A stretch of DNA of 35,922 bases from contig DATAQX010000132.1 in assembly GCA_036264455.1 (NCBI GenBank), positions 1 to 35,922 on the forward strand. The letters run 5' to 3'. The stretch is from Silvibacterium sp. (lineage in GTDB: Bacteria; Acidobacteriota; Terriglobia; Terriglobales; Acidobacteriaceae). Made by a program: the position numbers and the translations under genes. The notes under the pieces were generated by a model. It did not search any database. It saw only the letters and a list, made by a program, of their open reading frames with translations, and was not told where the DNA came from. This document shows, piece by piece, positions 18,310 through 31,705 of the stretch; position 1 is the first letter of the stretch, and the number at the start of each line of letters is the position of its first letter.

Positions 18310-18388
18310 CCCACATGCGGCCGACCTCCGTCGTAGAGTTTGACGCGGAGGTCGGTCCTAACCTGGTGGAAAGTTGGCGGAGTTGAAT

Positions 18389-19863
18389 ATGGCGCTTATC
18401 ACTCGGAGACACGTCGTCCGGCAAATGGCGCTTGCCGCCGCACTCTGCGGATGCCCGATTAGTGCGATTGGTGAAGCGCGACGGCTTTTCGACGCGGACG
18501 AACAGAATGGCCCTCCGCTCGATCCGGCGACGATCCGCAAGCTGGCTTCCGAAATCGTCGGCCAGGTAATCACGCCGGACGGATCCGAGTACGAAGTGGC
18601 ACGCTTGACCTTCAACCGGGCATTCGATCACCGTCCGGCGGTGATTGTGCGCTGCGCTGGCTCATCGGACGTCGCGCGCGCCCTGGATTTTGCCCAGACC
18701 AAAAATTTGCCACTGGCGGTGCGCGGTGGAGGCCATAGCCGGCTCGGGTATGGGATGTGCGACGGCGGCGTGGTGATCGACGTCTCCGGAATGAAACGAG
18801 TGGAAGTCGATGCCGGCAGACGCGTGGCCCGCGCCGAGTCAGGCGCGCTCGTGCGCGATCTGGACCAAGCCACGCAGCGCTTTGGGCTTGCGACAACGTC
18901 GGGCGGGTGCCCGACGGTAGGAATTGCTGGCCTGACCCTCGGCGGGGGAGAAGGTCGCTTGATGGACAAGTACGGCGCCGCCTGCGACAACCTGCTATCG
19001 GCGCAAGTGGTGACCGTGGACGGGAAACAAGTCGAGGCCAGCCAGGAGTCCAATCCAGATCTTTTTTGGCGATTCGCGGCGGCGGCGGCAACTTCGGTGT
19101 AGTGACGGCGTTGGAGTACCAGCTTCATCCTGTAGGCGAGGTCGTTTCGGGAGCGCTGATGTATCCCGCGGGACGCATTCCAGACCTACTGCAGGCTTTC
19201 GTCAGGTTTCTTGCGGAGGCCCCGGATGAAATGGACGCGTTTGCCCAGTTGTTGCCGTCCGAACGGGGGCCAAGGCTCAAAATCGATGTCTGCTATTGCG
19301 GCGATCCAAGAATGGGGACTGACTTGCTCAGGCCGCTGCGAGCGCTCAAACCGCAGGATGACAGCGTCAGGGTCATGCCCTATCTGGAAGCTCAGGCGGC
19401 AGGTGGATTTCTTCTAGCGCCGGTTGCACACTTCCAAACGAACCTCTTTCTTCGGGAACTCAGCGGGGCCGCCATTGCGGCGATTACGGCCGCAACCAAC
19501 AATGCGCCAGCAACGTGCAAGGTGATCATCGTGCCGTTTCGCGGGGCTGTTAGCCGGGTAAGTTTGAGTGATATGGCGTTTGCTCTGCGGCAGCCTGGCT
19601 ATGAGGTAGACATGACGGGTGTCTGGAGCGCTCCTGCAGAGAAGGCCAATGCGGTGCGATGGGTCCAGGCTACGCGCGACAATTTGCAACCCTTCGCGCA
19701 TGGAGTGTATGTCAACCAGCTAGGCGATACGAGCGACCAGCTGGTGCGCTCGGCCTACGGGCCGAACTATGCTCGCCTCGTAGAGATCAAGGAAAAGTAC
19801 GACCCAAAGAACGTGCTGCGGCTCAATCAAAACATCAAGCCGGATAGTACCTCGAATAGTTAA
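18389..19863 (+). pseudogene. FAD-binding oxidoreductase (FAD_binding_4/BBE family) split by a 1-nt frameshift; pseudogene or sequencing error
   Basis: PAVIVRC..VRGGGHS, GIAGLTLGGG, PDLFW in one frame; AIRGGGGNFGVVT..YVNQ..YGPNYARLVEIKEKYDPKNV in another; one G missing at 19068-19069; Tat-like TRRHVV. Confidence 0.85.
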
Positions 19864-19962: not shown

Positions 19963-20799
19963 CTACCTGGCAACCGGTCGGGTGCGATCGAGGGTTCGGG
20001 CGAGAGCGAATGTCTTGGCCTGCATGACGACAGGTTTGGATGCCGTTTGCTTCACAACGGCCTGATAGCAAAACTGCACTCCCAGCGCGAACAGACAGAT
20101 GGAGAGCGCAAGGCGCAACTGGCGGTTGGGCAGGCGCGGGGCGATGAGGGAGCCGGCGAGCCCTCCTGCGATGCCTCCAAGGATGAGACGGGTGAGGAGT
20201 GCTATATCGAGGTTGCTACTGGCGAAATGCAAGCTGCTGCCGGCGAGCGCGACACAGAGTCCAAAGGCCAGGTCAGTGCCAACCACCTGCGCCGCGGTAA
20301 GCGAGGAAAGACCGAGCAAGACGAGAGTGCCGAGTGCTCCTGCGCCGGATGAGGAGAAACCCACTTCAGCGCCGATGGGGAACATGAACGCGGCGATGGC
20401 ACCGCGGCGCGCGGGCCTTTCCGCATTTGTTTTGAAGGGGCGGAAGTGCCGGTAGAAATGCCATCCCGACGACGTGATGATGATGACGCCAAGTACGGCA
20501 TATAGGACGGCGTTGTTACCGGCCGCGGCAAAATGGCGGAAGAGCAATGAGCCGAGAACAACGCCGGGTAAACCGCCGAGCAGCATGATTCCGAGGACGC
20601 GATAGGCGACCTGACGCCGCCACATTTGCAGCGGTACAACGACTGCCTTGACCGCGACAGAATATGCGAGCGAAGTCCCTACCCCGACAACGACAGGCAC
20701 GTGCAGAAACAGGATTAGCAGCGGCGCAGTGATGGTTCCAGCCCCGACGCCGGTGATGGCGATGACGAACGCGATAAGGAATCCGAGCGCCAGTTCCAT
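19963..20799 (-). CDS. TauE/SafE (TSUP) family sulfur-oxyanion permease
   Basis: TGVGAGTITAPLLIL, VGFSSSGAGALG, VVGTDLAFG, multiple TM helices; last gene of the cys operon. Confidence 0.88.
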   Translation of the reverse strand: MELALGFLIAFVIAITGVGAGTITAPLLILFLHVPVVVGVGTSLAYSVAVKAVVVPLQMWRRQVAYRVLGIMLLGGLPGVVLGSLLFRHFAAAGNNAVLYAVLGVIIITSSGWHFYRHFRPFKTNAERPARRGAIAAFMFPIGAEVGFSSSGAGALGTLVLLGLSSLTAAQVVGTDLAFGLCVALAGSSLHFASSNLDIALLTRLILGGIAGGLAGSLIAPRLPNRQLRLALSICLFALGVQFCYQAVVKQTASKPVVMQAKTFALARTLDRTRPVAR

Positions 20800-20807
20800 C
20801 GGGTGTC

Positions 20808-21527
20808 CTAACTCTGCGAGCTTTCTCCGCTTTCAACGGATTGAATGTGAATGCCGCACTCGACCTTGTGTCCGCTCCATCGGCCGGAGCGCGGGTCGTC
20901 CGCGCTGGTGGGCAGACTGGTACAAGGCTCACAGCCGATGCTGGAGTAGCCGAGATCGTAGAGCGGCAGCAGGGGAATGCCGTGGCGCTCGGCGTATTGC
21001 CAGACGTCGCGCGTGTGCCAGTCGGCGAGTGGACTGAGTTTGCGCAACTGCTTGCCACTGGGCAGGGTGAAGTTTTCCAAGGACTGGAGATTGGCGCGAG
21101 TCTTCGCCTGCTGGCGGCGCAGCCCGGTGAACCAGACGTTGTAAGGCTGGAGTGCGGCGAAGAGCGGTCCTACCTTGCGCAGGCCGCAGCAGCGGTCGGG
21201 GGCAGTCTGATTGAGAATGCCGAATTCGGCTTCCTGCTCAGCAACCGTTTGCGCTGGCAGGATATTGTGCAGGTTCAGATGCCAGTCTGCGGCGATGCGG
21301 TCGCGGTATTCGTAGGTGGCCTGGAAGTGATAGCCGGTGTCGAGGAAGAGCACGGGGATGCCGGGCGTTATTTGCCTGACCAAATGCAGAACGACTACGT
21401 CCTCGGCCTGGAAGCTGCTGGTGACGCAGGCATCGTTTGCGTAAGAGTGGAGTTGCTCGCGCACGAGTGTTGCCGCTGTCGCGATCTTCTCGTCGAGGGT
21501 TATGACTGAGACGGGAATAGTGCTCAT
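20808..21527 (-). CDS. cysH: APS/PAPS reductase (4Fe-4S APS-reductase type)
   Basis: FLDTGYHF, RCCGLRK, SIGCEPCT, RSGRW, C-terminal ECGIH. Confidence 0.95.
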   Translation of the reverse strand: MSTIPVSVITLDEKIATAATLVREQLHSYANDACVTSSFQAEDVVVLHLVRQITPGIPVLFLDTGYHFQATYEYRDRIAADWHLNLHNILPAQTVAEQEAEFGILNQTAPDRCCGLRKVGPLFAALQPYNVWFTGLRRQQAKTRANLQSLENFTLPSGKQLRKLSPLADWHTRDVWQYAERHGIPLLPLYDLGYSSIGCEPCTSLPTSADDPRSGRWSGHKVECGIHIQSVESGESSQS

Positions 21528-23137
21528 GGGTACTCCGTTGGCGGCTGGACTTCAAGATTGAGCGCGGTAATGACGGCTTCGGTCGAATCTTCTTCAAATG
21601 GCGTAAGGATGAAGTCATCCGTGACTCGTTGGAGGACGACGTCCGAGGTTTCCACGAGGACGATGACTCCTACGTGACACAGTGCGCGCCAGATATCGCG
21701 GTCCCGGACGCGTGTGCGAACAACGGGGTGGTGGAGTTCGAGCAGGCGTTGTTCAAGCGGCGCGAGCTGTTCGGCGTTGCCGAGAATAACGCGTGGGGTC
21801 TGTTCTGGATTTGTAACCGTCGTGGTGAGAATATGCCGGATCATGCCCGCGCCGATGGTGGCATTGGTAACCGGATCGATGAGGATGAAGCTGCCCATGG
21901 CGCGGCTCTGGGTGTAGAGATCGGCAAGGATGGGGCGGTCGGTTTCGACTTCAATGACGCCGATGGCGTTGAGATCGAGCGTGACCGCCGCTTGCGGATC
22001 AAGGGTTTCGATATTGATCTTGTGGCGGACAGAACGCACCCGCGCGGGCACGCTGTGGCTGGTGTGTTTGAGGAGATAGCGGCGACCGATTTCAAGCGGC
22101 TGCGCAGAGAGCCACACGACAGAGGCTTCGAAATGATTGGCAACCGTGGGCGGTGCCTCGACTGCGGCAATGAGATCTCCGCGGCTGATGTCACGTTCAT
22201 CCTCAAGCGTGACGGTGACGGAGAGGGGCGCGGTGGCGGACTCGAGTTCGCCGTCGAAGGTGACAATGCTTTGAATGCGGCTGGTGTGGCCTGAAGGCAG
22301 CGCTACGATGCGGTCTCCGCGATGGATGGTGCCGGCGGCGATTTGGCCCGCAAAGCCGCGGAAGTGCTGGTCGGGGCGGATGACTCGTTGGACGGGCAGA
22401 CGAAAAGCCAGATCAGCGTTCGCGCGCTCGAGGGGAACGGACTCGAGATATTCGAGTAGCGTGGGGCCGGTGTACCAGGGCATGTTGCCGCCGGCGTGGA
22501 CGACATTCTCACCTTCGAGCGCGCTGATGGGAATGGCCAAGAAACCGCCCAGACCTGTACGGGCGGCGAGGTTGGTGAAGTCGCGGCTCAGCCCAAGGAA
22601 GACTTCTCCGGAGTAATCGACCAAGTCCATCTTATTGATGGCGGCGATGACACGCGGAATGCCGAGCAGCGAGGCTATGTAGGCGTGACGGCGCGATTGG
22701 GTGAGGATTCCCTTGCGCGCGTCGATGAGAATGATGGCGAGATCGGCGGTAGACGCTCCTGTGGCCATGTTGCGCGTGTACTGTTCGTGGCCAGGTGTAT
22801 CGGCGATGATGAACTTGCGGCGTGCGGTCGAGAAGTAGCGGTAGGCAACGTCGATGGTGATTCCCTGCTCGCGTTCGGCGCGCAGACCGTCGGTAAGCTG
22901 GGCAAAATCGATGGCAGCTGCAGCAGTGCCGTGGCTGCGTGTGACGGCGCGGACATGGTCCTCATAGACGTTGCGCGAGTCGTAGAGCAGGCGGCCGATA
23001 AGGGTGGACTTGCCGTCGTCGACACTTCCTGCGGTCGTGAAGCGCAGGAGATCCTTGGCCTGCTCGGCTTCGAGAAAGTCTTCAATGGAAAACGCGGGAG
23101 CTTCGTCTTCCATTAATTGGGTCGCAAGGGCGCTCAT
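21524..23137 (-). CDS. cysN: Sulfate adenylyltransferase subunit 1 (GTPase)
   Basis: GSVDDGKSTLIGRLL, EREQGITIDVAYRYF, DTPGHEQYTRNM, NKMD, GSFILID..TIGAGMI; ATGA overlap with cysH. Confidence 0.96.
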   Translation of the reverse strand: MSALATQLMEDEAPAFSIEDFLEAEQAKDLLRFTTAGSVDDGKSTLIGRLLYDSRNVYEDHVRAVTRSHGTAAAAIDFAQLTDGLRAEREQGITIDVAYRYFSTARRKFIIADTPGHEQYTRNMATGASTADLAIILIDARKGILTQSRRHAYIASLLGIPRVIAAINKMDLVDYSGEVFLGLSRDFTNLAARTGLGGFLAIPISALEGENVVHAGGNMPWYTGPTLLEYLESVPLERANADLAFRLPVQRVIRPDQHFRGFAGQIAAGTIHRGDRIVALPSGHTSRIQSIVTFDGELESATAPLSVTVTLEDERDISRGDLIAAVEAPPTVANHFEASVVWLSAQPLEIGRRYLLKHTSHSVPARVRSVRHKINIETLDPQAAVTLDLNAIGVIEVETDRPILADLYTQSRAMGSFILIDPVTNATIGAGMIRHILTTTVTNPEQTPRVILGNAEQLAPLEQRLLELHHPVVRTRVRDRDIWRALCHVGVIVLVETSDVVLQRVTDDFILTPFEEDSTEAVITALNLEVQPPTEYP

Positions 23138-24108
23138 TAGAAGTACCCCTCGCGCTTCTTGATCTCCATGGAACCGTCCTGATCGTGATCGATGATGCGG
23201 TTGGCACGCTCCGAGGAACGAAACGATACGAGTTCGGCGATGATCTTCGGGAGGGTGTCGGCGTCGGAGCGGATGGCTCCGGTGCAGGGACTGCAGCCGA
23301 GGGAGCGCAGACGGCAGCGAACCAATTGCTCTTCTCCCGGCAATCCCTCGACAAAGCTCTGCTCGATAGGGATCAGGCTTTCGCCCCGCACCAGCATGCG
23401 GCGCTCCCTGGCGAAGTAGAGCGGAACGATGGGGATGTTTTCGAGATGGATGTAGTGCCAGATATCAAGCTCGGTCCAGTTGGAAAGTGGAAAGACGCGA
23501 ATGCTTTCGCCTGGACCGGTGCGGCTGTTGTAGAGGTTCCAGAGTTCGGGACGCTGGCCCTTTGGGTCCCATTGACCGGCGCGGTCACGGAAGGAAAAGA
23601 TACGCTCCTTGGCGCGCGATTTTTCTTCGTCGCGACGGGCTCCGCCGAAAGCGGCGTCGAAGCCATAGTAGCGGAGTGCGTCTAAGAGGGCTGTAGTCTT
23701 GAGAAGACCACAGCAGCGCTGAGTTCCGAGCTTTACCGGGTTTGCACCGTCGGCAAGCGCGCCTTCATTACGCCAGACGAGCAGGTTGAGGCCGAGCGAA
23801 CGTGTGTATGCGTCGCGGAATTCGAGCATCTCGCGGAACTTATAGCCGGTGTCGACATGAAGTAGCGGAAACGGAATGGGTCCGGGGTAAAAAGCCTTCT
23901 GCGCGAGACGCAGCATGACGGAGGAATCCTTGCCAATCGAATAGAGCATCACCGGCTTTTCGAATTCCGCTGCGACTTCGCGGAAGATGTGAATGCTCTC
24001 GGCCTCAAGCAGCTTGAGGTGGCTGAGACGGGGCGGGATTGTTTCCCTCGATATATCGGTTTCCGCGATCTGTGACAAAGTTGTCGATGCCATTCCGGTA
24101 GGTTCCAT
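23137..24108 (-). CDS. cysD: Sulfate adenylyltransferase subunit 2
   Basis: [62 protein letters not shown]; TAATG coupling to cysN. Confidence 0.97.
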
Positions 24109-24142
24109 GGCCGATACTGCAGGCCGTTGCCGATTGAAGCTG

Positions 24143-24185
24143 AAAAGGAAAAAGCCCAGGTGCCTTTGAAGTCAGGCGGTGGGCT
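24143..24185 (-). terminator. Intrinsic terminator (attenuator) in the cysD leader
   Basis: Minus strand AGCCCA-CC-GCCT-GACTTCAA-AGGC-ACC-TGGGCT followed by TTTTCCTTTT, between the leader ORF stop and the cysD start. Confidence 0.75.
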
Positions 24186-24223
24186 CAAGGAGCTGGATCG
24201 TCAGGGATTGTTTCGCGACTAGA

Positions 24224-24313
24224 TCAACAGAAACAGAGCTCACAGCCTTGGCGGCACGCGCAACAACAGGCGTGGCGGCGACAACAAGACGGAGCTTGAT
24301 TCGTGACCTGCAT
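24224..24313 (-). CDS. Cysteine-rich leader peptide MQVTNQAPSCCRRHACCCACRQGCELCFC (29 aa), putative attenuator uORF
   Basis: Hand-translated, below the ORF-track cutoff. 9/29 Cys, 7 of them TGT. Co-oriented and directly upstream of cysD, followed by a terminator. Confidence 0.8.
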   Translation of the reverse strand: MQVTNQAPSCCRRHACCCACRQGCELCFC

Positions 24314-24321
24314 CTGTTAAG

Positions 24322-24350
24322 AGCTTCGCGCAGGCGCGGACGATTGTCAA
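24322..24350 (-). promoter_or_regulatory. Sigma70-like promoter of the leader-cysDNH transcript
   Basis: TTGACA (24345-24350), 17-bp spacer, weak -10 GAAGCT (24322-24327), 8 nt before the leader ATG; no Shine-Dalgarno. Confidence 0.6.
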
Positions 24351-24521
24351 TTCGGGGTCACTCGCTTGACGCGGCGGAGTCTGCTCTCTATATTCGAAAT
24401 CACGATGAATCTCGCTGCCAGCATGCTTTGTACTTGTTGCTTTGGCGCAGGTGTATGGCCGGCGAGTAATCACTTCTAATTTCCAGGTTAGAGCCTTAGA
24501 AGTATCAGCGCCGGAGCCGAA

Positions 24522-24549
24522 TTGGCCCGGCTTTTTGTTCCTCTACAAC
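24522..24549 (+). promoter_or_regulatory. Candidate promoter of the leader-TonB receptor transcript
   Basis: TTGGCC (24522-24527), 16-bp spacer, TACAAC (24544-24549), 6 nt before ATG 24556. Confidence 0.4.
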
Positions 24550-24555
24550 TTGGTA

Positions 24556-24630
24556 ATGCCTCAGCGTATGGTTTCAAGCTCTTTATCCCGGCCCTCGATC
24601 GCGCGCTCTCCGCGCCGCTTCTGTTGTTGA
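24556..24630 (+). CDS. Putative leader peptide MPQRMVSSSLSRPSIARSPRRFCC (24 aa)
   Basis: Ends TTC TGT TGT TGA, like the opposite leader (TGT TTC TGT TGA); 100 nt upstream of the TonB receptor; stop codon lies inside a hairpin. Confidence 0.55.
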   Translation: MPQRMVSSSLSRPSIARSPRRFCC

Positions 24631-24730
24631 TTACCCCATAATCAACGCCTGCCGGTTGCGCCTGGCCTGACTTTCTACCCTACAAGTTCATTTTTATTTT
24701 CTTGCAGTTCCTTATAACAAGGAGGTTGTT

Positions 24731-27700
24731 GTGTTCGTCATTTCTCGTTTGACTCGAGTCTGCGCATGTGTGGTGCTGTTGAGCTTTGGCTTCGCCGGAA
24801 CGATCTGGAGCCAGGTGGTTGGAGGATCGATTGCGGGTACCGTTCGCGATGCGAGCGGAGCGGCGATTGCCGGCGCCACGGTTGAGATTCGCAATGCGGA
24901 AACGGGCTTTGCGCGCACATTAACGAGCGATGACGCGGGTCGATATGCGGCTCCTTCAGTACCGATTGGCACCTACTCGGTGAGCGCCGCCAGGGATGGA
25001 TTCGGCAGGCAGACGCAAACAGGCATCCGGTTGGTGGTGGGGCAGAGCGCGGTGATCGATTTGTCACTTGCTGTGGGCAAAGTTCATCAAGAGGTGACGG
25101 TGGCGGCGATTCCTGCGACGGTGGAAGTGTCGACTCAGCAGACGTCCGGGCTGGTGGACGAGCGGCAGGTGAAAGAGCTTCCGCTGAATGGCCGCAGCTA
25201 TGACGAGCTGATGACATTGAATCCCGCGATTGTGAACTACTCGGTCGAGCGCTCGGGCGGCATCGGTACTTCGAATTCGGCGGTAGGAAATATGTTCGCT
25301 GTCTCGGGGCATCGTCCGCAGGACAATCTCTTTCTGCTGAACGGGATTGAGTACACGGGATCGTCGGAGATCAATGTGACTCCGGGGGGAACGAGCGGGC
25401 AGTTGCTTGGCGTAGATGCAGTGCGCGAGTTCAACGTCGTCACGGACACGTATGGCGCGGAGTATGGAAAGCGCACAGGCGGGCAGGTGAGTATTGTAAC
25501 TGCATCCGGCACAAATAAGGTACACGGCTCGGTCTTCGAATTCCTGCGTAACAGCGCCTTTGATGCGCGTAACTATTTCGATCAGGCCGACATTCCGGAG
25601 TTCCAGCGGAACCAGTTTGGTGCGGCGCTGGGCGGGCCGCTCAGCAGGAACAAACTGTTTCTCTTCGGCAACTACGAGGGCTTTCGGCAGAATCTGCATC
25701 TGAGTGATGTGACGCTGGTTCCGGATAACCAGGCGCGGCTGGGGTATGTACCAAACTCGAGCGGCAAGGAGACGTATGTCGGCGTGAACAGCGCAGTGCA
25801 ACCACTGCTGGCACTGTGGCCAGTGCAGAACGGTCCAGAGCTAGGCAGTGGAATCGCGGAGGCTTTCAGCAGCCCCTTGCAACGGATTCGCGAAGACTTC
25901 GGGACGACACGGCTGGATTACAACATCTCGAACAAAGACCTGCTGTTTGGCGTGTACACAATTGATGACAGCGACGCGAATACGCCCACGGCGAATCCGC
26001 TCAGCTCGGTTGTCGAGGCGTTGCGCGAGCAAGTGGTGAGCGTGCAGCAGCAGCACGTGTTCTCTCCGGCGCTGTTGAATACCGCGCGGGTGGGATTTTC
26101 GCGGGCAGCCTATGCTTTCACGGGAACGACTCCGGTGGATGTTCCGGGATGGATTGCGGGGCGACCGATCGGGGCGCTGGTGGTTGGCGGAGGCACGGCG
26201 TTGAATGGCGCGTCGCAGATTACCGGCGCGGGCACGAATGCGGGCAGCAACCTGGCGACAGCGCGCAATCTGTATACATTCGACAACCATGTGTACTGGA
26301 CCCGCGGGATTCACCAGGTAGAGCTGGGCGGATGGCTGCAGTTGATCCAGTCGAATGACAACCTGGCTCAAGACCAGTACGGGCAGGCGTCGTTTGGCAG
26401 CCTGACCAGTTTTCTTCAGGGGACGGTCGCGACATTTACGTCGGTCCCTTCGCCTACAGAACTCGGCTGGCGGTCGCTTGAGGGCGCGGGCTTTGTTCAG
26501 GACACAATCCGGATCAGACCGACTCTGGAGTTGCGAGCAGGCTTCCGCTTTGAATCGACGAATGGCTGGAACGAGTCGCAGGACCGGGCTTCGAATTACC
26601 TGTTCGATGAGAATGGTGTGATTCAGACGAATCCGCAGGTCGGGCACTCGGCATTGAGTAAGAATCGCGCGAAGTTTTTGCCGGAGCCGCGTGTTGGGAT
26701 TGCGTGGGATCCGACGGGGCACAGTCGCACGATTGTGCATGCCGGGTTCGGTGTATATCGTGCACTGCTGGATAACCTTGATTACCGCCTGGACCAGACG
26801 GCACCGTTCAATACGACGAACACGCTAAAGAACGTGGCAGTGAGCAGCCTGAATATTGTGCCGGGTGAAGCGCCGCCATCGGGGAGCCTGGTTTCGCCGA
26901 GCGGTGTGCAGCCGGATGCTTACACGCCGACGGTGCTCTCGTGGTCATTGAGTATTGCGCAGCAGATTGCTCCCAACACCTCGCTCACGATCGGCTATGT
27001 GGGCTCGCATGGCTATCACCAGATGCTTTCGGAAGATGTGAACGAACCTGTGCCGACCATTTGCCCAGCTTCGCCATGCCCAACAACTCTGCCAGCGGGG
27101 ACGACTTATTACTCGAAGGGAGCTCCGTATGCGAATCCACAGCTGGCGAATACGACGACGTGGATTTCAGAAGGATTGAACTCATACAACGGACTGACGG
27201 TGGATGTGAATCACCGCTTCCACCATGGATTGCAGTTGCGCGGCGTGTACACCTGGTCGAAGAGTCTCGATGACGGAACAGCGTGGAATACGAGTGTGGG
27301 GGCGAACGCGCCGGCGTTTGTGGAGTTTCCGCTGGAGCCGAAGAGGGATTGGGGTCCGGCGAGTACAGATGTGCGCAATCTGGCGGTGATCAGCGGAACG
27401 TATGATCTTCCGTTCGGGCGCGGTAATGACAGCGCGCTTAGCCGAACGCTGGTTCAGGGATGGAGCTTCAGCGGGATTACGACTCTGCAGTCAGGCTTCC
27501 CTTTTACGCCTCAGCTGGGATTCAACCCGACGAACAATGGCGATAGCCGCAATCCGATCCGACCGTCGGTGAATCCGGATTTCCATGGCAAGGTGATCGA
27601 AGGGGGTCCAACGCAGTACTTCAATCCGGCGGCGTTTCTGGTGCCTGCGGCGGGCACATATGGCAATGCCTCGCGCAACTCGCTTGCAGGTCCTGGATTT

Positions 27701-27925
27701 GCGAACCTGGACGTTTCGTTCCGGAAGAATACGGCGATTGCGGAGGGACTGAATCTGCAGTTTCGCGCAGAGCTGTTCAATGTGCTGAACCACACGAACT
27801 TCGGCACTCCGAATGAGGTGGTGTATTCGGCGGCAGGGACAACTCCTTCGTCAACCGCAGGGGTGATCACGTCGACAGCTTCCACTTCGCGGCAGATTCA
27901 GTTTGGGTTAAAGCTGCTGTTCTGA
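24731..27925 (+). CDS. TonB-dependent receptor, Oar-like; probably sulfur-source uptake
   Basis: AAGGAGG RBS with GTG start, GSIAGTVRDASGA, LPLNGRSY, DAVREFNV, FRAELFNVLNHTNF, RQIQFGLKLLF. Function inferred from context. Confidence 0.93.
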   Translation: MFVISRLTRVCACVVLLSFGFAGTIWSQVVGGSIAGTVRDASGAAIAGATVEIRNAETGFARTLTSDDAGRYAAPSVPIGTYSVSAARDGFGRQTQTGIRLVVGQSAVIDLSLAVGKVHQEVTVAAIPATVEVSTQQTSGLVDERQVKELPLNGRSYDELMTLNPAIVNYSVERSGGIGTSNSAVGNMFAVSGHRPQDNLFLLNGIEYTGSSEINVTPGGTSGQLLGVDAVREFNVVTDTYGAEYGKRTGGQVSIVTASGTNKVHGSVFEFLRNSAFDARNYFDQADIPEFQRNQFGAALGGPLSRNKLFLFGNYEGFRQNLHLSDVTLVPDNQARLGYVPNSSGKETYVGVNSAVQPLLALWPVQNGPELGSGIAEAFSSPLQRIREDFGTTRLDYNISNKDLLFGVYTIDDSDANTPTANPLSSVVEALREQVVSVQQQHVFSPALLNTARVGFSRAAYAFTGTTPVDVPGWIAGRPIGALVVGGGTALNGASQITGAGTNAGSNLATARNLYTFDNHVYWTRGIHQVELGGWLQLIQSNDNLAQDQYGQASFGSLTSFLQGTVATFTSVPSPTELGWRSLEGAGFVQDTIRIRPTLELRAGFRFESTNGWNESQDRASNYLFDENGVIQTNPQVGHSALSKNRAKFLPEPRVGIAWDPTGHSRTIVHAGFGVYRALLDNLDYRLDQTAPFNTTNTLKNVAVSSLNIVPGEAPPSGSLVSPSGVQPDAYTPTVLSWSLSIAQQIAPNTSLTIGYVGSHGYHQMLSEDVNEPVPTICPASPCPTTLPAGTTYYSKGAPYANPQLANTTTWISEGLNSYNGLTVDVNHRFHHGLQLRGVYTWSKSLDDGTAWNTSVGANAPAFVEFPLEPKRDWGPASTDVRNLAVISGTYDLPFGRGNDSALSRTLVQGWSFSGITTLQSGFPFTPQLGFNPTNNGDSRNPIRPSVNPDFHGKVIEGGPTQYFNPAAFLVPAAGTYGNASRNSLAGPGFANLDVSFRKNTAIAEGLNLQFRAELFNVLNHTNFGTPNEVVYSAAGTTPSSTAGVITSTASTSRQIQFGLKLLF

Positions 27926-28071: not shown

Positions 28072-31000
28072 ATGATAGGTAACAGCTTGCCGGCACTACT
28101 TAAGTTGACCCCTAACAAGCCATACCTATGCAAGAGTTTTTCGCTTTTGCTCGTACTTGTCCTTGGTGCGTTTGCGGTTGACGCATTTGGCTTTTCAGCT
28201 CCGCTCCGAGATCAAGTGCTGACCACATGGACGACCCAGCAGGGCCTTCCGCAGAATTTCATCACGTCACTCGCTCAGACATCCGATGGCTTCGTCTGGG
28301 TGGGGACGATGAATGGGCTGGTGCGCTTCGATGGGCTTCATTTCCGGGGGTTCAGCCAGGACGGGCCGCCAGAGTTGCAGGGGTTTATCGGCGCGCTCGC
28401 GAGAGATAGCGGCGATGGCCTCTGGATTGTGACAGCATCGAACCTCTTCCACTACGAGCATCATCGCTTTGTGCCGATTCTCTTTGAAGGGCGGCCACGT
28501 TACCGGATTGACTCTCTGGCGCGCTCGAAGGATGGAGAGCTGTGGCTCTACTTTGAAGGTAAGTTGGAGCGCACCCAGGCGGACAGGCTGGTGGCTGCCC
28601 GCTTGCCTGATGGAGTGCATCGGGTAAGCGACATGGCGGAGGGCAGCGATGGATCGCTCTGGATCGCTGACCGCGAAAACATCTTCCGCATGCGCAAGGA
28701 TGTCGTGGTTGCGAAATACAAGCTGCCTGACTGTCGTTTTGTATATGCGGACAACTTTGGCGATCTTTGGGCAGGGGATGGCCATCACTTGTTTCATTTT
28801 GATGGAAGCGGCTTTGCGCATGTCGCGAAACCGGGTCTGGGTAACTTTGTCAGCGTGATGATCGACAGCCATCATAGGCTCTGGATGGCGAGCGGCGGAC
28901 TTCATGGACTCACACGAAAGTCTGGTGATGAGATCGAGACGCTCACCGAAGCCGACGGGCTTGCAAGCAATGACGTTCGCACGGTTCTCGAAGACCGCAA
29001 CGGCGACTTCTGGCTGGGGACGATTGCCGGCCTTCAACGCCTTCATCAAGGTGTTTTCACGAGTTATTCCGCAACTGAGAAGCGGGCGGGGCAGCATAGC
29101 GAGACGGTCTCCATCTTTGAACAGAAGGATGGCACCATCTGGACGGGGACGCTCGAAGGCGGCGTCGTTCGCTGGCGGGAGGGGCACTGGCAACGCTTTG
29201 ATAAGGCACAGGGACTATCGCCGGGGCAGGTGCGGGGCTTTTTCGAAAATGGCGCCACGCCAGCGATTGCTATTGCCGATTATGGAATCTTCGAGAAGCG
29301 TGACGGCAGGTTCACGAAGATGCCGCAGATTCCACACGGATATGTGAGCACGCCTGTCGTTGCCGGCGATGGAAGTGTCTGGTTCCACATCGAAAATCGA
29401 GGACTTTTCCGGTTGAGGAGCGGCGTGGTCACGGAGTTTGGAAGTAAGGACGGCCTTAGCGGCAAGCCGTTGTCGTCTCTTACCGTCGATGGTCATGGCG
29501 TTTTGTGGGTTGGGGATGCAGCCGGACTGGAACGCTGGAATGGCCACGGCTTTGAGCGCGTCCTTTCTACGTCCGGGCCTGTCCTTTGCGTAGAGTGGCC
29601 GAACGATGGAATCGCTGTGGGCACATTCAATGGCCTGCTGTTGCGAAGCGGAATGAACGATTCCGACCGTTTGTTGACACAGAATGAGGGATTACCCGGC
29701 AATACCGTACTCGATGTGTTGAGCGACGACGAGGATAATCTCTGGATCGTGACGGCCAGCGCTATCGCCCGCATTACGAGTAAACAATGGAGAGCGTTTG
29801 CCAGGGGTAAAAGTTCGCGAGTTGATATGGAGGTATATACCGAGGCGGATGGTCTCAAAAGCCGTTACGTTCTGCCCTTGAATGGAGTGACAGCCACACG
29901 GGCAAACGACGGGCGGCTGTGGTTCGCAACCATCAAGGGACCGGCTGTCGTCGATCCACATTTGGCCAGCACGCCGCCTGCACAGGCTGTGGTGGACGGC
30001 ATCGTTGTTGACGATCAGCATCATCTACCCGGTGATTTGACGGTGAGTCCGGGCCAGCATCGCATTACCTTTGCATACACATCGCCGGCTACGATGGCTC
30101 CTGAGCAGAACCGCTTTCGCTATCGCCTGGTGGGATGGGACCGCGACTGGGTGGATGCAGGCACTTCGCGCGAAGTTTCATACACAGGCCTTCGGCCCGG
30201 CCACTACAGATTCCAGGTGATCGCCACGAACCGTGAAGGCGGCTCGAGTGAGCTACCGGCTCAGGCGGAGATTCAGCTGCAGCCGTTCTTCTGGCAGACA
30301 AAATGGTTTCTCGTCGCCGTCATCTGCGCGGCTATAGGCATTATTGTCGAGGTCACACGGCGATTCACCCGTCGAAGAGCGGACCGGTTGAGCATGCGCT
30401 TTCAGGAGCGGGTCGCGGAGCGTGAGCGGATTGCCCACCAGATTCACGATACGGTAATTCAGGATCTGATCGGCGCAACTCTGCAGCTAGAGCTCATCGG
30501 ATTTGAGATGGCCGATCATCCTGAGAGATCGAAGACGTTGCTGGCCACACTGGCGGAACGCATGCGTGAGACAATTGCGCGGAGCCGGAACATGGTTTCG
30601 AATCTTCATTCGACGGCTGTAGCGCAATACAGTCTGGTGGAAGTTCTGCGTCACTCGGAGGCGGAGTTTCGATCAGGGCCATTGCCGGTGTTCGATCTGG
30701 TTTCTACAGGCGAGCTGCGCGAGGTGCATCCGCTGATCCGCGACGAAGTATACCGCATCTGCCGCGAGGCACTGGCAAATGCCTTTCGTCACGCAAATGC
30801 AGAATATGTAACAGTGGAAGTACGTTTTCTGCCCGATGTGCTTGAGGTTGAGATCTCCGATGACGGCAATGGCATGACCGAAGAGCTGTTACAGCATGGC
30901 CGCGCCGGACACTTCGGGTTGCGTGGAATGCACGCGCATGCGCAGCGCATCGGCGCAACGCTGGTGATCGAGAGCGAGCCGGGACAGGGAACGAACGTTA

Positions 31001-31086
31001 TACTGCGCGTAAAGACGTATAGCTCTTCGTTGTGGCGAGGCAATGGCAGAGGGAAGTTCAGAAGAAATGATGCAAACGCAAGTTGA
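28072..31086 (+). CDS. Sensor histidine kinase with periplasmic beta-propeller, Y_Y_Y domain, HisKA_3 and HATPase
   Basis: GLPQNFITSLAQTSDGFVWVGT repeats, FRYRLVGWD..YTGLRPGHYRFQV, ERERIAHQIHDTVIQ, EALANAFRHA, DDGNG, GHFGLRGM. Confidence 0.93.
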   Translation: MIGNSLPALLKLTPNKPYLCKSFSLLLVLVLGAFAVDAFGFSAPLRDQVLTTWTTQQGLPQNFITSLAQTSDGFVWVGTMNGLVRFDGLHFRGFSQDGPPELQGFIGALARDSGDGLWIVTASNLFHYEHHRFVPILFEGRPRYRIDSLARSKDGELWLYFEGKLERTQADRLVAARLPDGVHRVSDMAEGSDGSLWIADRENIFRMRKDVVVAKYKLPDCRFVYADNFGDLWAGDGHHLFHFDGSGFAHVAKPGLGNFVSVMIDSHHRLWMASGGLHGLTRKSGDEIETLTEADGLASNDVRTVLEDRNGDFWLGTIAGLQRLHQGVFTSYSATEKRAGQHSETVSIFEQKDGTIWTGTLEGGVVRWREGHWQRFDKAQGLSPGQVRGFFENGATPAIAIADYGIFEKRDGRFTKMPQIPHGYVSTPVVAGDGSVWFHIENRGLFRLRSGVVTEFGSKDGLSGKPLSSLTVDGHGVLWVGDAAGLERWNGHGFERVLSTSGPVLCVEWPNDGIAVGTFNGLLLRSGMNDSDRLLTQNEGLPGNTVLDVLSDDEDNLWIVTASAIARITSKQWRAFARGKSSRVDMEVYTEADGLKSRYVLPLNGVTATRANDGRLWFATIKGPAVVDPHLASTPPAQAVVDGIVVDDQHHLPGDLTVSPGQHRITFAYTSPATMAPEQNRFRYRLVGWDRDWVDAGTSREVSYTGLRPGHYRFQVIATNREGGSSELPAQAEIQLQPFFWQTKWFLVAVICAAIGIIVEVTRRFTRRRADRLSMRFQERVAERERIAHQIHDTVIQDLIGATLQLELIGFEMADHPERSKTLLATLAERMRETIARSRNMVSNLHSTAVAQYSLVEVLRHSEAEFRSGPLPVFDLVSTGELREVHPLIRDEVYRICREALANAFRHANAEYVTVEVRFLPDVLEVEISDDGNGMTEELLQHGRAGHFGLRGMHAHAQRIGATLVIESEPGQGTNVILRVKTYSSSLWRGNGRGKFRRNDANAS

Positions 31087-31705
31087 AGCGGCTCCAATTC
31101 AAGTGCTGATTGTCGATGATCATCCCATGGTGCGCGAAGGGCTTGCGGGTGTGCTGGAACGGCAGAATATGAAGATCGTCGGACTCGCTGCTACCGGGAA
31201 GCAGGCAGTCGAAATGTATTCGGCCTATAAGCCGGATGTTGTACTGCTCGATCTGCGCCTGCCGGACCAGAGCGGATTTGACGTTGTGCGCACAGTGCTC
31301 GGCAATGATCCGCAGGCGCGCATCATTATCCTGAGCTCGGCCCAGGGCGATGCTTCCATCTACAACGCGATCAGCCTGGGCGTGCGCGGATATCTGCTGA
31401 AAGGCATTGACGGCGCTACGCTTGCAGATCAGGTGAGGCGTGTCGCGGCAGGCGGCAGCTGCCTTTCACCTGAGACGGCGGAGAAGCTAACGCTGTACAT
31501 CTCCTCGCAAAAACTCAGCGAGCGTGAAATCGAAGTCCTCGGGCTCATCTCAAAGGGCAAGAGCAACAAAGAAATAGCCGATCTTATCTTCGTGACCGAG
31601 AACACGGTCAAGATGCACGTAAAGAAAATTCTTTTGAAGCTACAGGCCAATGACCGCACGCAGGCCGTGGTGATCGCCATTCAGCGTGGACTCCTCGACG
31701 CATGA
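31067..31705 (+). CDS. NarL/FixJ family response regulator (REC plus LuxR HTH)
   Basis: LIVDDHPMVREG, DVVLLDLRLP, GYLLKG, LSEREIEVL..GKSNKEIA..TVKMHV; overlaps the kinase stop. Confidence 0.95.
   Translation: MMQTQVEAAPIQVLIVDDHPMVREGLAGVLERQNMKIVGLAATGKQAVEMYSAYKPDVVLLDLRLPDQSGFDVVRTVLGNDPQARIIILSSAQGDASIYNAISLGVRGYLLKGIDGATLADQVRRVAAGGSCLSPETAEKLTLYISSQKLSEREIEVLGLISKGKSNKEIADLIFVTENTVKMHVKKILLKLQANDRTQAVVIAIQRGLLDA

Follow-up and report, generated by a model that had tools for sequence, protein, structure and literature searches.

Among leader-peptide attenuators, those of the trp/his/leu type are the classical class. In mycobacteria, the polycysteine leaderless sORFs Ms5788A and Rv2334A are attenuators of a ‘Cys ribulon’, and the one case dissected, according to the available text of that study, proved to be translational (Canestrari et al., bioRxiv 10.1101/834739). 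For terminator-less Cys leaders of Actinobacteria, Rho was proposed by Seliverstov et al. (2005), who, in the portion of the paper available, rated the mycobacterial Rho inference ‘rather weak’, with polyY motifs not conserved there (PMC1262725). In tnaC, according to the accessible text of a review, the ribosome shields a rut site; such sites are described there as having more C than G and little structure, with an optimum of 60-90 nt, and as difficult to predict, C>G bias being a weak predictor of them (PMC12360218). A uORF controls a TonB-dependent transporter via Rho in the CruR-bfrG system of Bordetella pertussis (PMC9426467, accessible portion), and in Salmonella mgtCBR the tandem uORF attenuators mgtM and mgtP sense ATP and proline (PMC3641672, accessible portion). 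Neither a tandem nor an acidobacterial case appears in the available parts of 10.1101/2022.06.01.494293, PMC13236596, and PMC13096801, and the words cysteine, sulfur, and Acidobacteri- are absent from the main text of review PMC12360218. Literature searches, with most subscription papers outside their scope, returned no acidobacterial Cys leader and no same-signal tandem; the supplementary sORF tables of Canestrari et al. could hold tandem cases.

The window, i.e., the whole 35,922-nt stretch of Silvibacterium sp. DNA that was analyzed, carries two tandem Cys leaders on the plus strand, in the region between a minus-strand cysD-cysN-cysH-tauE operon and a plus-strand gene for an Oar-like TonB-dependent receptor. 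The second of them, uORF2, had been singled out in a sequence-only reading of this DNA, from which the first, uORF1, was absent. That uORF2 is a Cys-sensing leader of some kind, mechanisms taken together, is highly probable; that it is specifically a Rho-dependent attenuator sensing cysteine, with Rho action presumed, has a somewhat better than even chance of being correct. The features of the region, by position in the window and strand, are:

19963..24108, minus: cysD-cysN-cysH-tauE sulfate activation operon
24143..24186, minus: terminator-like hairpin and U tract after the cysD leader, identified by folding and missed by the terminator scan
24224..24313, minus: cysD leader MQVTNQAPSCCRRHACCCACRQGCELCFC, ending TGT TTC TGT TGA
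24322..24350, minus: cys operon promoter TTGACA-17-GAAGCT, back-to-back with the receptor promoter and conserved in relatives
24366..24394, plus: sigma70-type promoter TTGACG-17-TATATT
24405..24479, plus: uORF1, near-leaderless Cys leader MNLAASMLCTCCFGAGVWPASNHF, beginning 10 nt after the -10 box
24459..24514, plus: predicted antiterminator, CCGGCG (24459-24464) pairing with CGCCGG (24509-24514)
24510..24539, plus: intrinsic terminator between uORF1 and uORF2, -14.4 kcal/mol hairpin and U tract
24556..24630, plus: uORF2, 24-codon leader with a Cys-Cys-stop end, peptide MPQRMVSSSLSRPSIARSPRRFCC
24568..24716, plus: C>G-biased RNA spanning the uORF2 body and spacer, C/G 1.78, predicted Rho loading (rut) region
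24622..24627, plus: putative uORF2 sensor codons TGT TGT, directly 5′ of the TGA stop
24626..24646, plus: 8-bp hairpin over the uORF2 stop codon, at a probability >0.5 in 6 of 28 leaders
24710..24733, plus: receptor RBS AAGGAGG (24719-24725) in a local hairpin, with the GTG start (24731)
24731..27925, plus: Oar-like TonB-dependent receptor (PF13620 + PF25183), sulfur-poor

uORF2 opens with an ATG at 24556 and ends at 24630 with the codons TTC TGT TGT TGA; the start that is conserved is the second ATG (24568), and the first Cys codon comes 18 codons after it. What the sequence-only reading had stated of the letters themselves, on uORF2, the stem over its stop, the pyrimidine-rich tract (24665-24715; 24 T, 13 C, 9 A, and 5 G in 51 nt), the receptor RBS, and the end of the cysD leader, was correct throughout. 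The role that it gave to the 8-bp stem is not borne out, since the hairpin passes a probability of 0.5 in just those six leaders; it is lineage-restricted and probably not essential. Nor does the supposed mirroring of the uORF2 and cysD leader endings extend to relatives, in which cysD leaders end otherwise. The statement that an intrinsic terminator is lacking stands downstream of uORF2, where none was found in any of 28 leaders, but fails upstream, where the strong terminator at 24510-24539 lies 20-45 nt away. Among 27,876 ATG-initiated ORFs of 10-40 aa in the genome, 63 (0.23%) end in CC, and an Rfam scan of 23900-25000 detected no riboswitch or T-box, its three chance matches falling far below the gathering scores.

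Receptor homologs from 61 related genomes, which supplied 30 loci, and from the GTDB contig collection, which supplied 71, yielded a non-redundant set of 85 leaders in which the receptor 5′ end was covered. The rule for uORF2 called for Cys-Cys, at most three further codons, and a stop, with the end 20-200 nt before the receptor and an in-frame start 8-30 codons upstream. Such a uORF preceded 29 of the 30 receptors of one Acidobacteriaceae clade as opposed to 1 of the 55 other homologs; sorted by linkage, it preceded 28/29 receptors with cysD/cysN in the locus and 2/56 others. A narrower rule with a tail of at most two codons, which omits L055 and L050, gave 27/28, and the full rule fired in 34 of 2,800 dinucleotide shuffles (1.2%). 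In a FastTree phylogeny of 77 receptors, from which eight short or split rows were left out, the leader-bearing receptors all fell in one clade of 30 (support 99) that spans several genera and 61-100% receptor identity; the closest named relatives of the receptor, at 91-92% identity, are Silvibacterium and other Acidobacteriota records. Because the leader-bearing receptors form one clade with one origin, these counts are non-independent and no p-value is claimed. Conservation of a CC-stop uORF before orthologous receptors, proposed as a check on the original idea, was thus found within the clade, and, judging from sequence comparison, uORF2 is real and under selection, a conserved, unannotated regulatory element that represents a variant of cysteine-codon attenuation.

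Upstream of uORF2 lies a first gate. uORF1 is present in 27 of the 28 cys-linked leaders, the 28th (L023) being cut by the contig end, and a promoter-like -10 box stands 6-11 nt before it in 27/27 leaders with sequence available, a figure to be read with the box having been part of the uORF1 search rule. The gate-1 terminator was found in 19 of the 28 leaders and not in the other nine, in most of which uORF1 too ends in a Cys run beside the stop; its covariation score exceeds those of 500/500 shuffles, with double changes at three pairs. The two strands of the predicted antiterminator are the conserved Pro-Ala codons of uORF1 (CCGGCG) and the 5′ arm of the terminator (CGCCGG), and their complementarity is conserved, with covariation not above shuffles. 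With a ribosome modeled on the uORF1 Cys codons, the antiterminator forms in 18/19 co-transcriptional snapshots; its absence with the ribosome at the uORF1 stop is by construction, and in equilibrium folding the terminator beats it in 16/17 cases. From structure and conservation, we infer that gate 1 is a classical intrinsic leader-peptide attenuator.

The layout varies among relatives. In a subgroup comprising L016-L022 and L051, most uORF1s end in a Cys run at the stop, no intrinsic terminator was found, and a small CCGG hairpin is conserved between both uORFs; these leaders possibly have two Rho-type gates. In Edaphobacter sp. HDX4 (L050:4350-5955), the order is a Cys leader, a terminator-like hairpin, a small ORF, yeiH, a coupled Cys-Cys leader, and the receptor; uORF2 has stayed next to the receptor, and its start codon (ATG) overlaps the stop of yeiH.

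At the second gate, RNAalifold returned no consensus pairs in 14 close leaders. Measured over 105-180 nt, C/G is at least 1.25 in 28/28 leaders compared with 19/54 controls, the medians being 1.81 and 1.0, respectively, and YC density is 0.21 vs 0.14. The spacer from the uORF2 stop to the receptor RBS is 56-123 nt, and rho is encoded in the genome, with a match above the family cut-off. The lack of a terminator, a consensus structure, and an RBS switch, together with C>G bias in every leader and an encoded Rho, leads us to favor Rho-dependent attenuation; the shortness of the post-stop spacer and the strong receptor Shine-Dalgarno (SD) sequence are points against it. Of the two outputs offered in the sequence-only reading, Rho-dependent or translational attenuation, the gate being terminator-less with Rho likeliest agrees with the first, whereas an RBS switch finds no consensus structure and a mean change of 0.4 kcal/mol.

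In the favored model, for which translation of uORF2, stalling on it, and Rho action are deduced from the features above, the two gates would act in series. When cysteine is scarce, a ribosome paused at the CTCC of uORF1 would free CCGGCG to capture the 5′ arm of the terminator, and transcripts past gate 1 would then reach gate 2. When cysteine is plentiful, the ribosome would complete uORF2 and depart, leaving about 105-180 nt of C>G RNA bare, on which Rho could load and terminate transcription before or early in the receptor gene; the hairpin-held RBS and GTG start of the receptor may delay protective translation. When Cys-tRNA is scarce, the ribosome would instead stall on TGT-TGT at the stop, in a TnaC-like manner, blocking Rho. 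Because the Cys codons abut the stop, stalled and terminating ribosomes would cover nearly the same RNA, and only dwell time could be read. For an outer-membrane protein of 1,064 residues, two serial gates responding to one signal would make the response sharper and less leaky.

Alternatively, a stall on uORF2 could open a structure hiding the receptor RBS, giving translational control as for Ms5788A. That mechanism is proven for one mycobacterial poly-Cys leader, on the available text (bioRxiv 10.1101/834739), the receptor RBS sits in a local hairpin here, and a modeled stall eases RBS opening by >1 kcal/mol in 8/28 leaders. However, opening is hindered (under -1) in 3/28, this window being one of the three and thus of the wrong sign (-1.3), and the mean change of 0.4 kcal/mol, the missing consensus structure over the 14 close leaders, and the 56-123 nt between the uORF2 stop and the RBS all argue against such a switch, which is unlikely on balance. 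Pairing of the Cys codons with the receptor RBS was itself rejected, as it reaches a probability >0.2 in only 2/28 leaders and has no consensus structure.

RNase E prefers unstructured U/C-rich tracts, and an effect of the stall on mRNA stability, with the ribosome shielding the single-stranded pyrimidine/AU-rich spacer from an endonuclease, would suit a spacer that is kept unstructured and U/C-rich as a property, not as a sequence. Yet the bias is one of C over G in 28/28 leaders, a Rho signature, and some spacers are U-poor (14-17% U in L017 and L019), and this reading is improbable.

As to whether uORF2 is a reading frame, an in-frame ATG lies 12-26 codons upstream, with no stop between, in 25 of the 28 cys-linked leaders, compared with 0 and 0 in the other frames, and 34/38 ATGs in the 90 nt before the Cys codons are in the Cys frame. 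Within the 18 codons before the Cys codons, stops occur in 0/28 leaders in frame 0 and in 14 and 4 in the other two frames. The tails vary (CC, CCR, CCC, CCCR, CCRAL, and CCCSC), always with an in-frame stop, which is TGA in 26 leaders, TAG in one, and TAA in one. The peptide body is unconserved, with no codon-position bias in its substitutions (337/334/335), which is the pattern that a sensor would be expected to show. TGT encodes the first Cys in 28/28 leaders and accounts for 57/64 uORF2 Cys codons, compared with 1,417/6,356 (22%) in the long ORFs of the genome, where the tRNA-Cys genes found have the anticodon GCA; attenuators favor starvation-sensitive wobble codons. Arg is frequent 2-3 codons ahead of the Cys pair.

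Initiation at uORF2 is the weak point of the translation reading, since there is neither a usable SD in the 14 closest leaders (no duplex stronger than -2.8 kcal/mol) nor an internal promoter; the receptor SD duplex in these leaders is strong, at -5.8 to -10.7 kcal/mol. An internal promoter making uORF2 leaderless was rejected, a -10 box preceding it in only 2/28 leaders, and the predicted distance from the transcript 5′ end to the uORF2 start is about 155-165 nt. Control of uORF2 initiation by gate 1 was likewise rejected, with no consistent effect and a large one in L020 and L021 alone of 27. It could be that uORF2 is barely translated or vestigial, that gate 1 does the regulating, and that UGUUGU has been retained as an RNA or protein-binding motif, in line with the closest group having no SD or promoter of its own for uORF2 and with an extreme TGT preference that could reflect nucleotide-level selection; this is nonetheless hard to reconcile with the distribution of in-frame ATGs (25/28 vs 0 and 0), the absence of in-frame stops, the in-frame stop after every variable tail, and the coupling of the start to the yeiH stop in L050, and we give it little credence. 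That the peptide itself is a metal-binding or ligand-sensing arrest peptide of the CruR/TnaC type, controlling a metal receptor, is barely credible: CruR, a Cys-containing uORF, does control a TonB transporter via Rho (PMC9426467, accessible portion), and the frequent Arg before the Cys pair could fit, but uORF2 has no CXXC-plus-RAPP architecture, only 13-24 codons ahead of the Cys pair, and an unconserved peptide, and it neighbors cys genes and yeiH and precedes a receptor poor in sulfur.

On the opposite side of the intergenic region, which holds three Cys leaders in all (two receptor-side, one cysD-side), the -35 box of the cys operon promoter is 15 nt from that of the receptor, and a CC-containing uORF precedes cysD in 28/29 loci. 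The proposal of a bidirectional switch gives way here to two back-to-back promoters with separate leaders, which in relatives are rearranged, with as much as 1.7 kb between the two sides or with both on one strand. Across 29 loci, receptor and cys genes are back-to-back within 730 nt in 12, divergent at 1.0-1.7 kb in 7, on one strand in 9 (cysD there having its own leader), and convergent in 1. It is plausible that the receptor and cys genes are co-regulated by drawing on one tRNA pool, but not that a single physical switch serves both sides.

The receptor adjoins cys genes in 28 of the 30 clade members. Its mature form contains 3 Met and 2 Cys in 1,034 residues, and its Cys+Met content of 0.44% is the lowest of the 28 receptor ORFs in the genome; the median is 0.49% in the leader clade (n = 28) vs 1.15% in other homologs (n = 40). 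A search for its substrate via solved structures gave no PDB match, and the receptor is predicted, from its composition and setting, to be a sulfur-source importer. Other Cys leaders have similar associations. One, MQAQLQSVDSFDRACCCR (G000:C477, L102:137-193, plus strand), precedes a small hydrophobic ORF and yeiH, of a putative sulfate exporter family, and a terminal-CC leader stands before yeiH in 11/11 same-genus loci. Another, the near-leaderless MTSFFTGAPLALCCR (G000:C218, L103:593-640, plus strand), precedes a DUF1684 gene, with a terminal-CC leader there in 12 of 14 genomes and none in two distant ones, a pattern suggesting that this DUF1684 clade acts in sulfur starvation. The genome-wide scan for CC-ORFs gave 244 raw candidates, of which 20 regions were taken and 18 downstream proteins scanned in Pfam; the conservation test covered two, yeiH and DUF1684, the others being set aside with no evident sulfur link. 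By inspection, no promoter-proximal Cys leader precedes two cysK/cysM-like genes. The earlier link to sulfur supply is upheld by the cys-gene neighbors, the sulfur-poor receptor, and the yeiH and DUF1684 leaders, but not as a single switch for both sides.

One cys-linked receptor (L055, 4325-5968) has no Cys leaders and has instead a divergent Rrf2 regulator and tauE. The best equivalog match of this Rrf2 protein is CymR, below the cut-off, and it may be a CymR-like, transcription-factor alternative to Cys leaders. Rrf2 genes occur in 33/33 same-genus genomes (the unpublished G023 included), and none was found in G000 (76% complete). That the locus has no local transcription factor therefore holds for the intergenic neighborhood, while regulators in trans are possible given the distribution of Rrf2.

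Several further observations concern receptor homologs and flanking genes. Upstream of a 50-54% receptor paralog, L025, L026, L029, and G000:C161 share a ∼28-nt motif with a -35-like TTGACA start, possibly an operator, and no Cys leader is present there in L025, L026, and L029. The ORF upstream of the L027 receptor homolog resembles by eye an HTH-plus-TOBE (ModE-like) regulator, which may hint at molybdate uptake for that branch. After the receptor, 28072-31705 (plus strand) encodes a propeller/Y_Y_Y histidine kinase and a NarL-type regulator; a search of the 6-kb flanks of receptor homologs did not turn up the kinase, which is probably unrelated to the receptor. At 18374-19863 (plus strand), an FAD-linked oxidase (FAD_binding_4 + BBE) is split across two overlapping frames, reflecting a frameshift or an assembly error.

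It is tentatively proposed, with a chance somewhat short of even, that Acidobacteriaceae respond to sulfur starvation by way of a ribosome-read Cys-codon regulon (cysDNH, yeiH, DUF1684, and the receptor) that mixes mechanisms, with the receptor, a sulfur-poor importer and the costliest member, double-locked by an intrinsic gate and then a hungry-codon Rho gate with an SD-less internal uORF. If true, the arrangement would amount to an AND gate in which two mechanisms read the same signal, and it could be the first Rho attenuator to respond to tRNA charging at a terminal codon pair; it would also suggest that sulfur sources cross the outer membrane by a route not yet described. Cysteine-codon attenuation, experimentally shown in mycobacteria in the papers found, would extend into one of the major phyla of soil; the idea, put forward in 2005, that Cys attenuation can depend on Rho becomes directly testable in the cultured strains Silvibacterium bohemicum S15, Acidobacterium sp. 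S8, and Edaphobacter sp. HDX4; and the Cys leader could serve as an annotation tag, assigning one clade among the numerous uncharacterized TonB receptors of acidobacteria, along with DUF1684 homologs, to sulfur starvation.

Set against the described systems, in each case as given in the accessible parts of the cited papers, the locus resembles the Cys ribulon in that, at several loci, sulfur genes follow short ORFs containing runs of two or more Cys codons, and in the leaderless or near-leaderless character of uORF1 (by promoter spacing) and of the leaders of cysD, yeiH, and DUF1684. It differs in phylum, in its two serial leaders, and in having an outer-membrane TonB receptor as target; uORF2 is internal, not leaderless, and, unlike in Ms5788A, no duplex of uORF2 with the receptor RBS was found. 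With the Actinobacteria leaders of PMC1262725 it shares Cys runs at the stop, the lack of a terminator hairpin, and pyrimidine tracts, but here C exceeds G in 28/28 leaders and an intrinsic attenuator lies ahead of the gate. Features in common with tnaC at uORF2 are the missing terminator, C>G weakly structured RNA, and an encoded Rho, and, as in tnaC and speFL, a ribosome at the last uORF codons is predicted to shield an adjacent C>G region from Rho (PMC12360218); those systems need a conserved nascent peptide and a ligand, whereas a uORF2 stall would come from hungry Cys codons, and no conserved nascent arrest peptide was found in the 28 leaders. The CXXC and RAPP motifs of CruR, a DUF2946 copper sensor, are both absent from uORF2. 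Gate 1 is like classical attenuators such as M. tuberculosis ilvB1 (PMC13236596) in having regulatory codons, a U-tract terminator, and, within the uORF, a predicted partner strand for an antiterminator, and unlike them in the amino acid that it would sense, cysteine, and in its near-leaderless start, with gate 2 departing further in having no terminator. As in mgtCBR, two uORF attenuators occupy one leader; mgtCBR reads two signals, whereas both gates here would read cysteine, by predicted different outputs. Distinctive, then, is the same-signal tandem, an unusual design in which one amino acid would be sensed twice in succession, the second time at a terminator-less gate.
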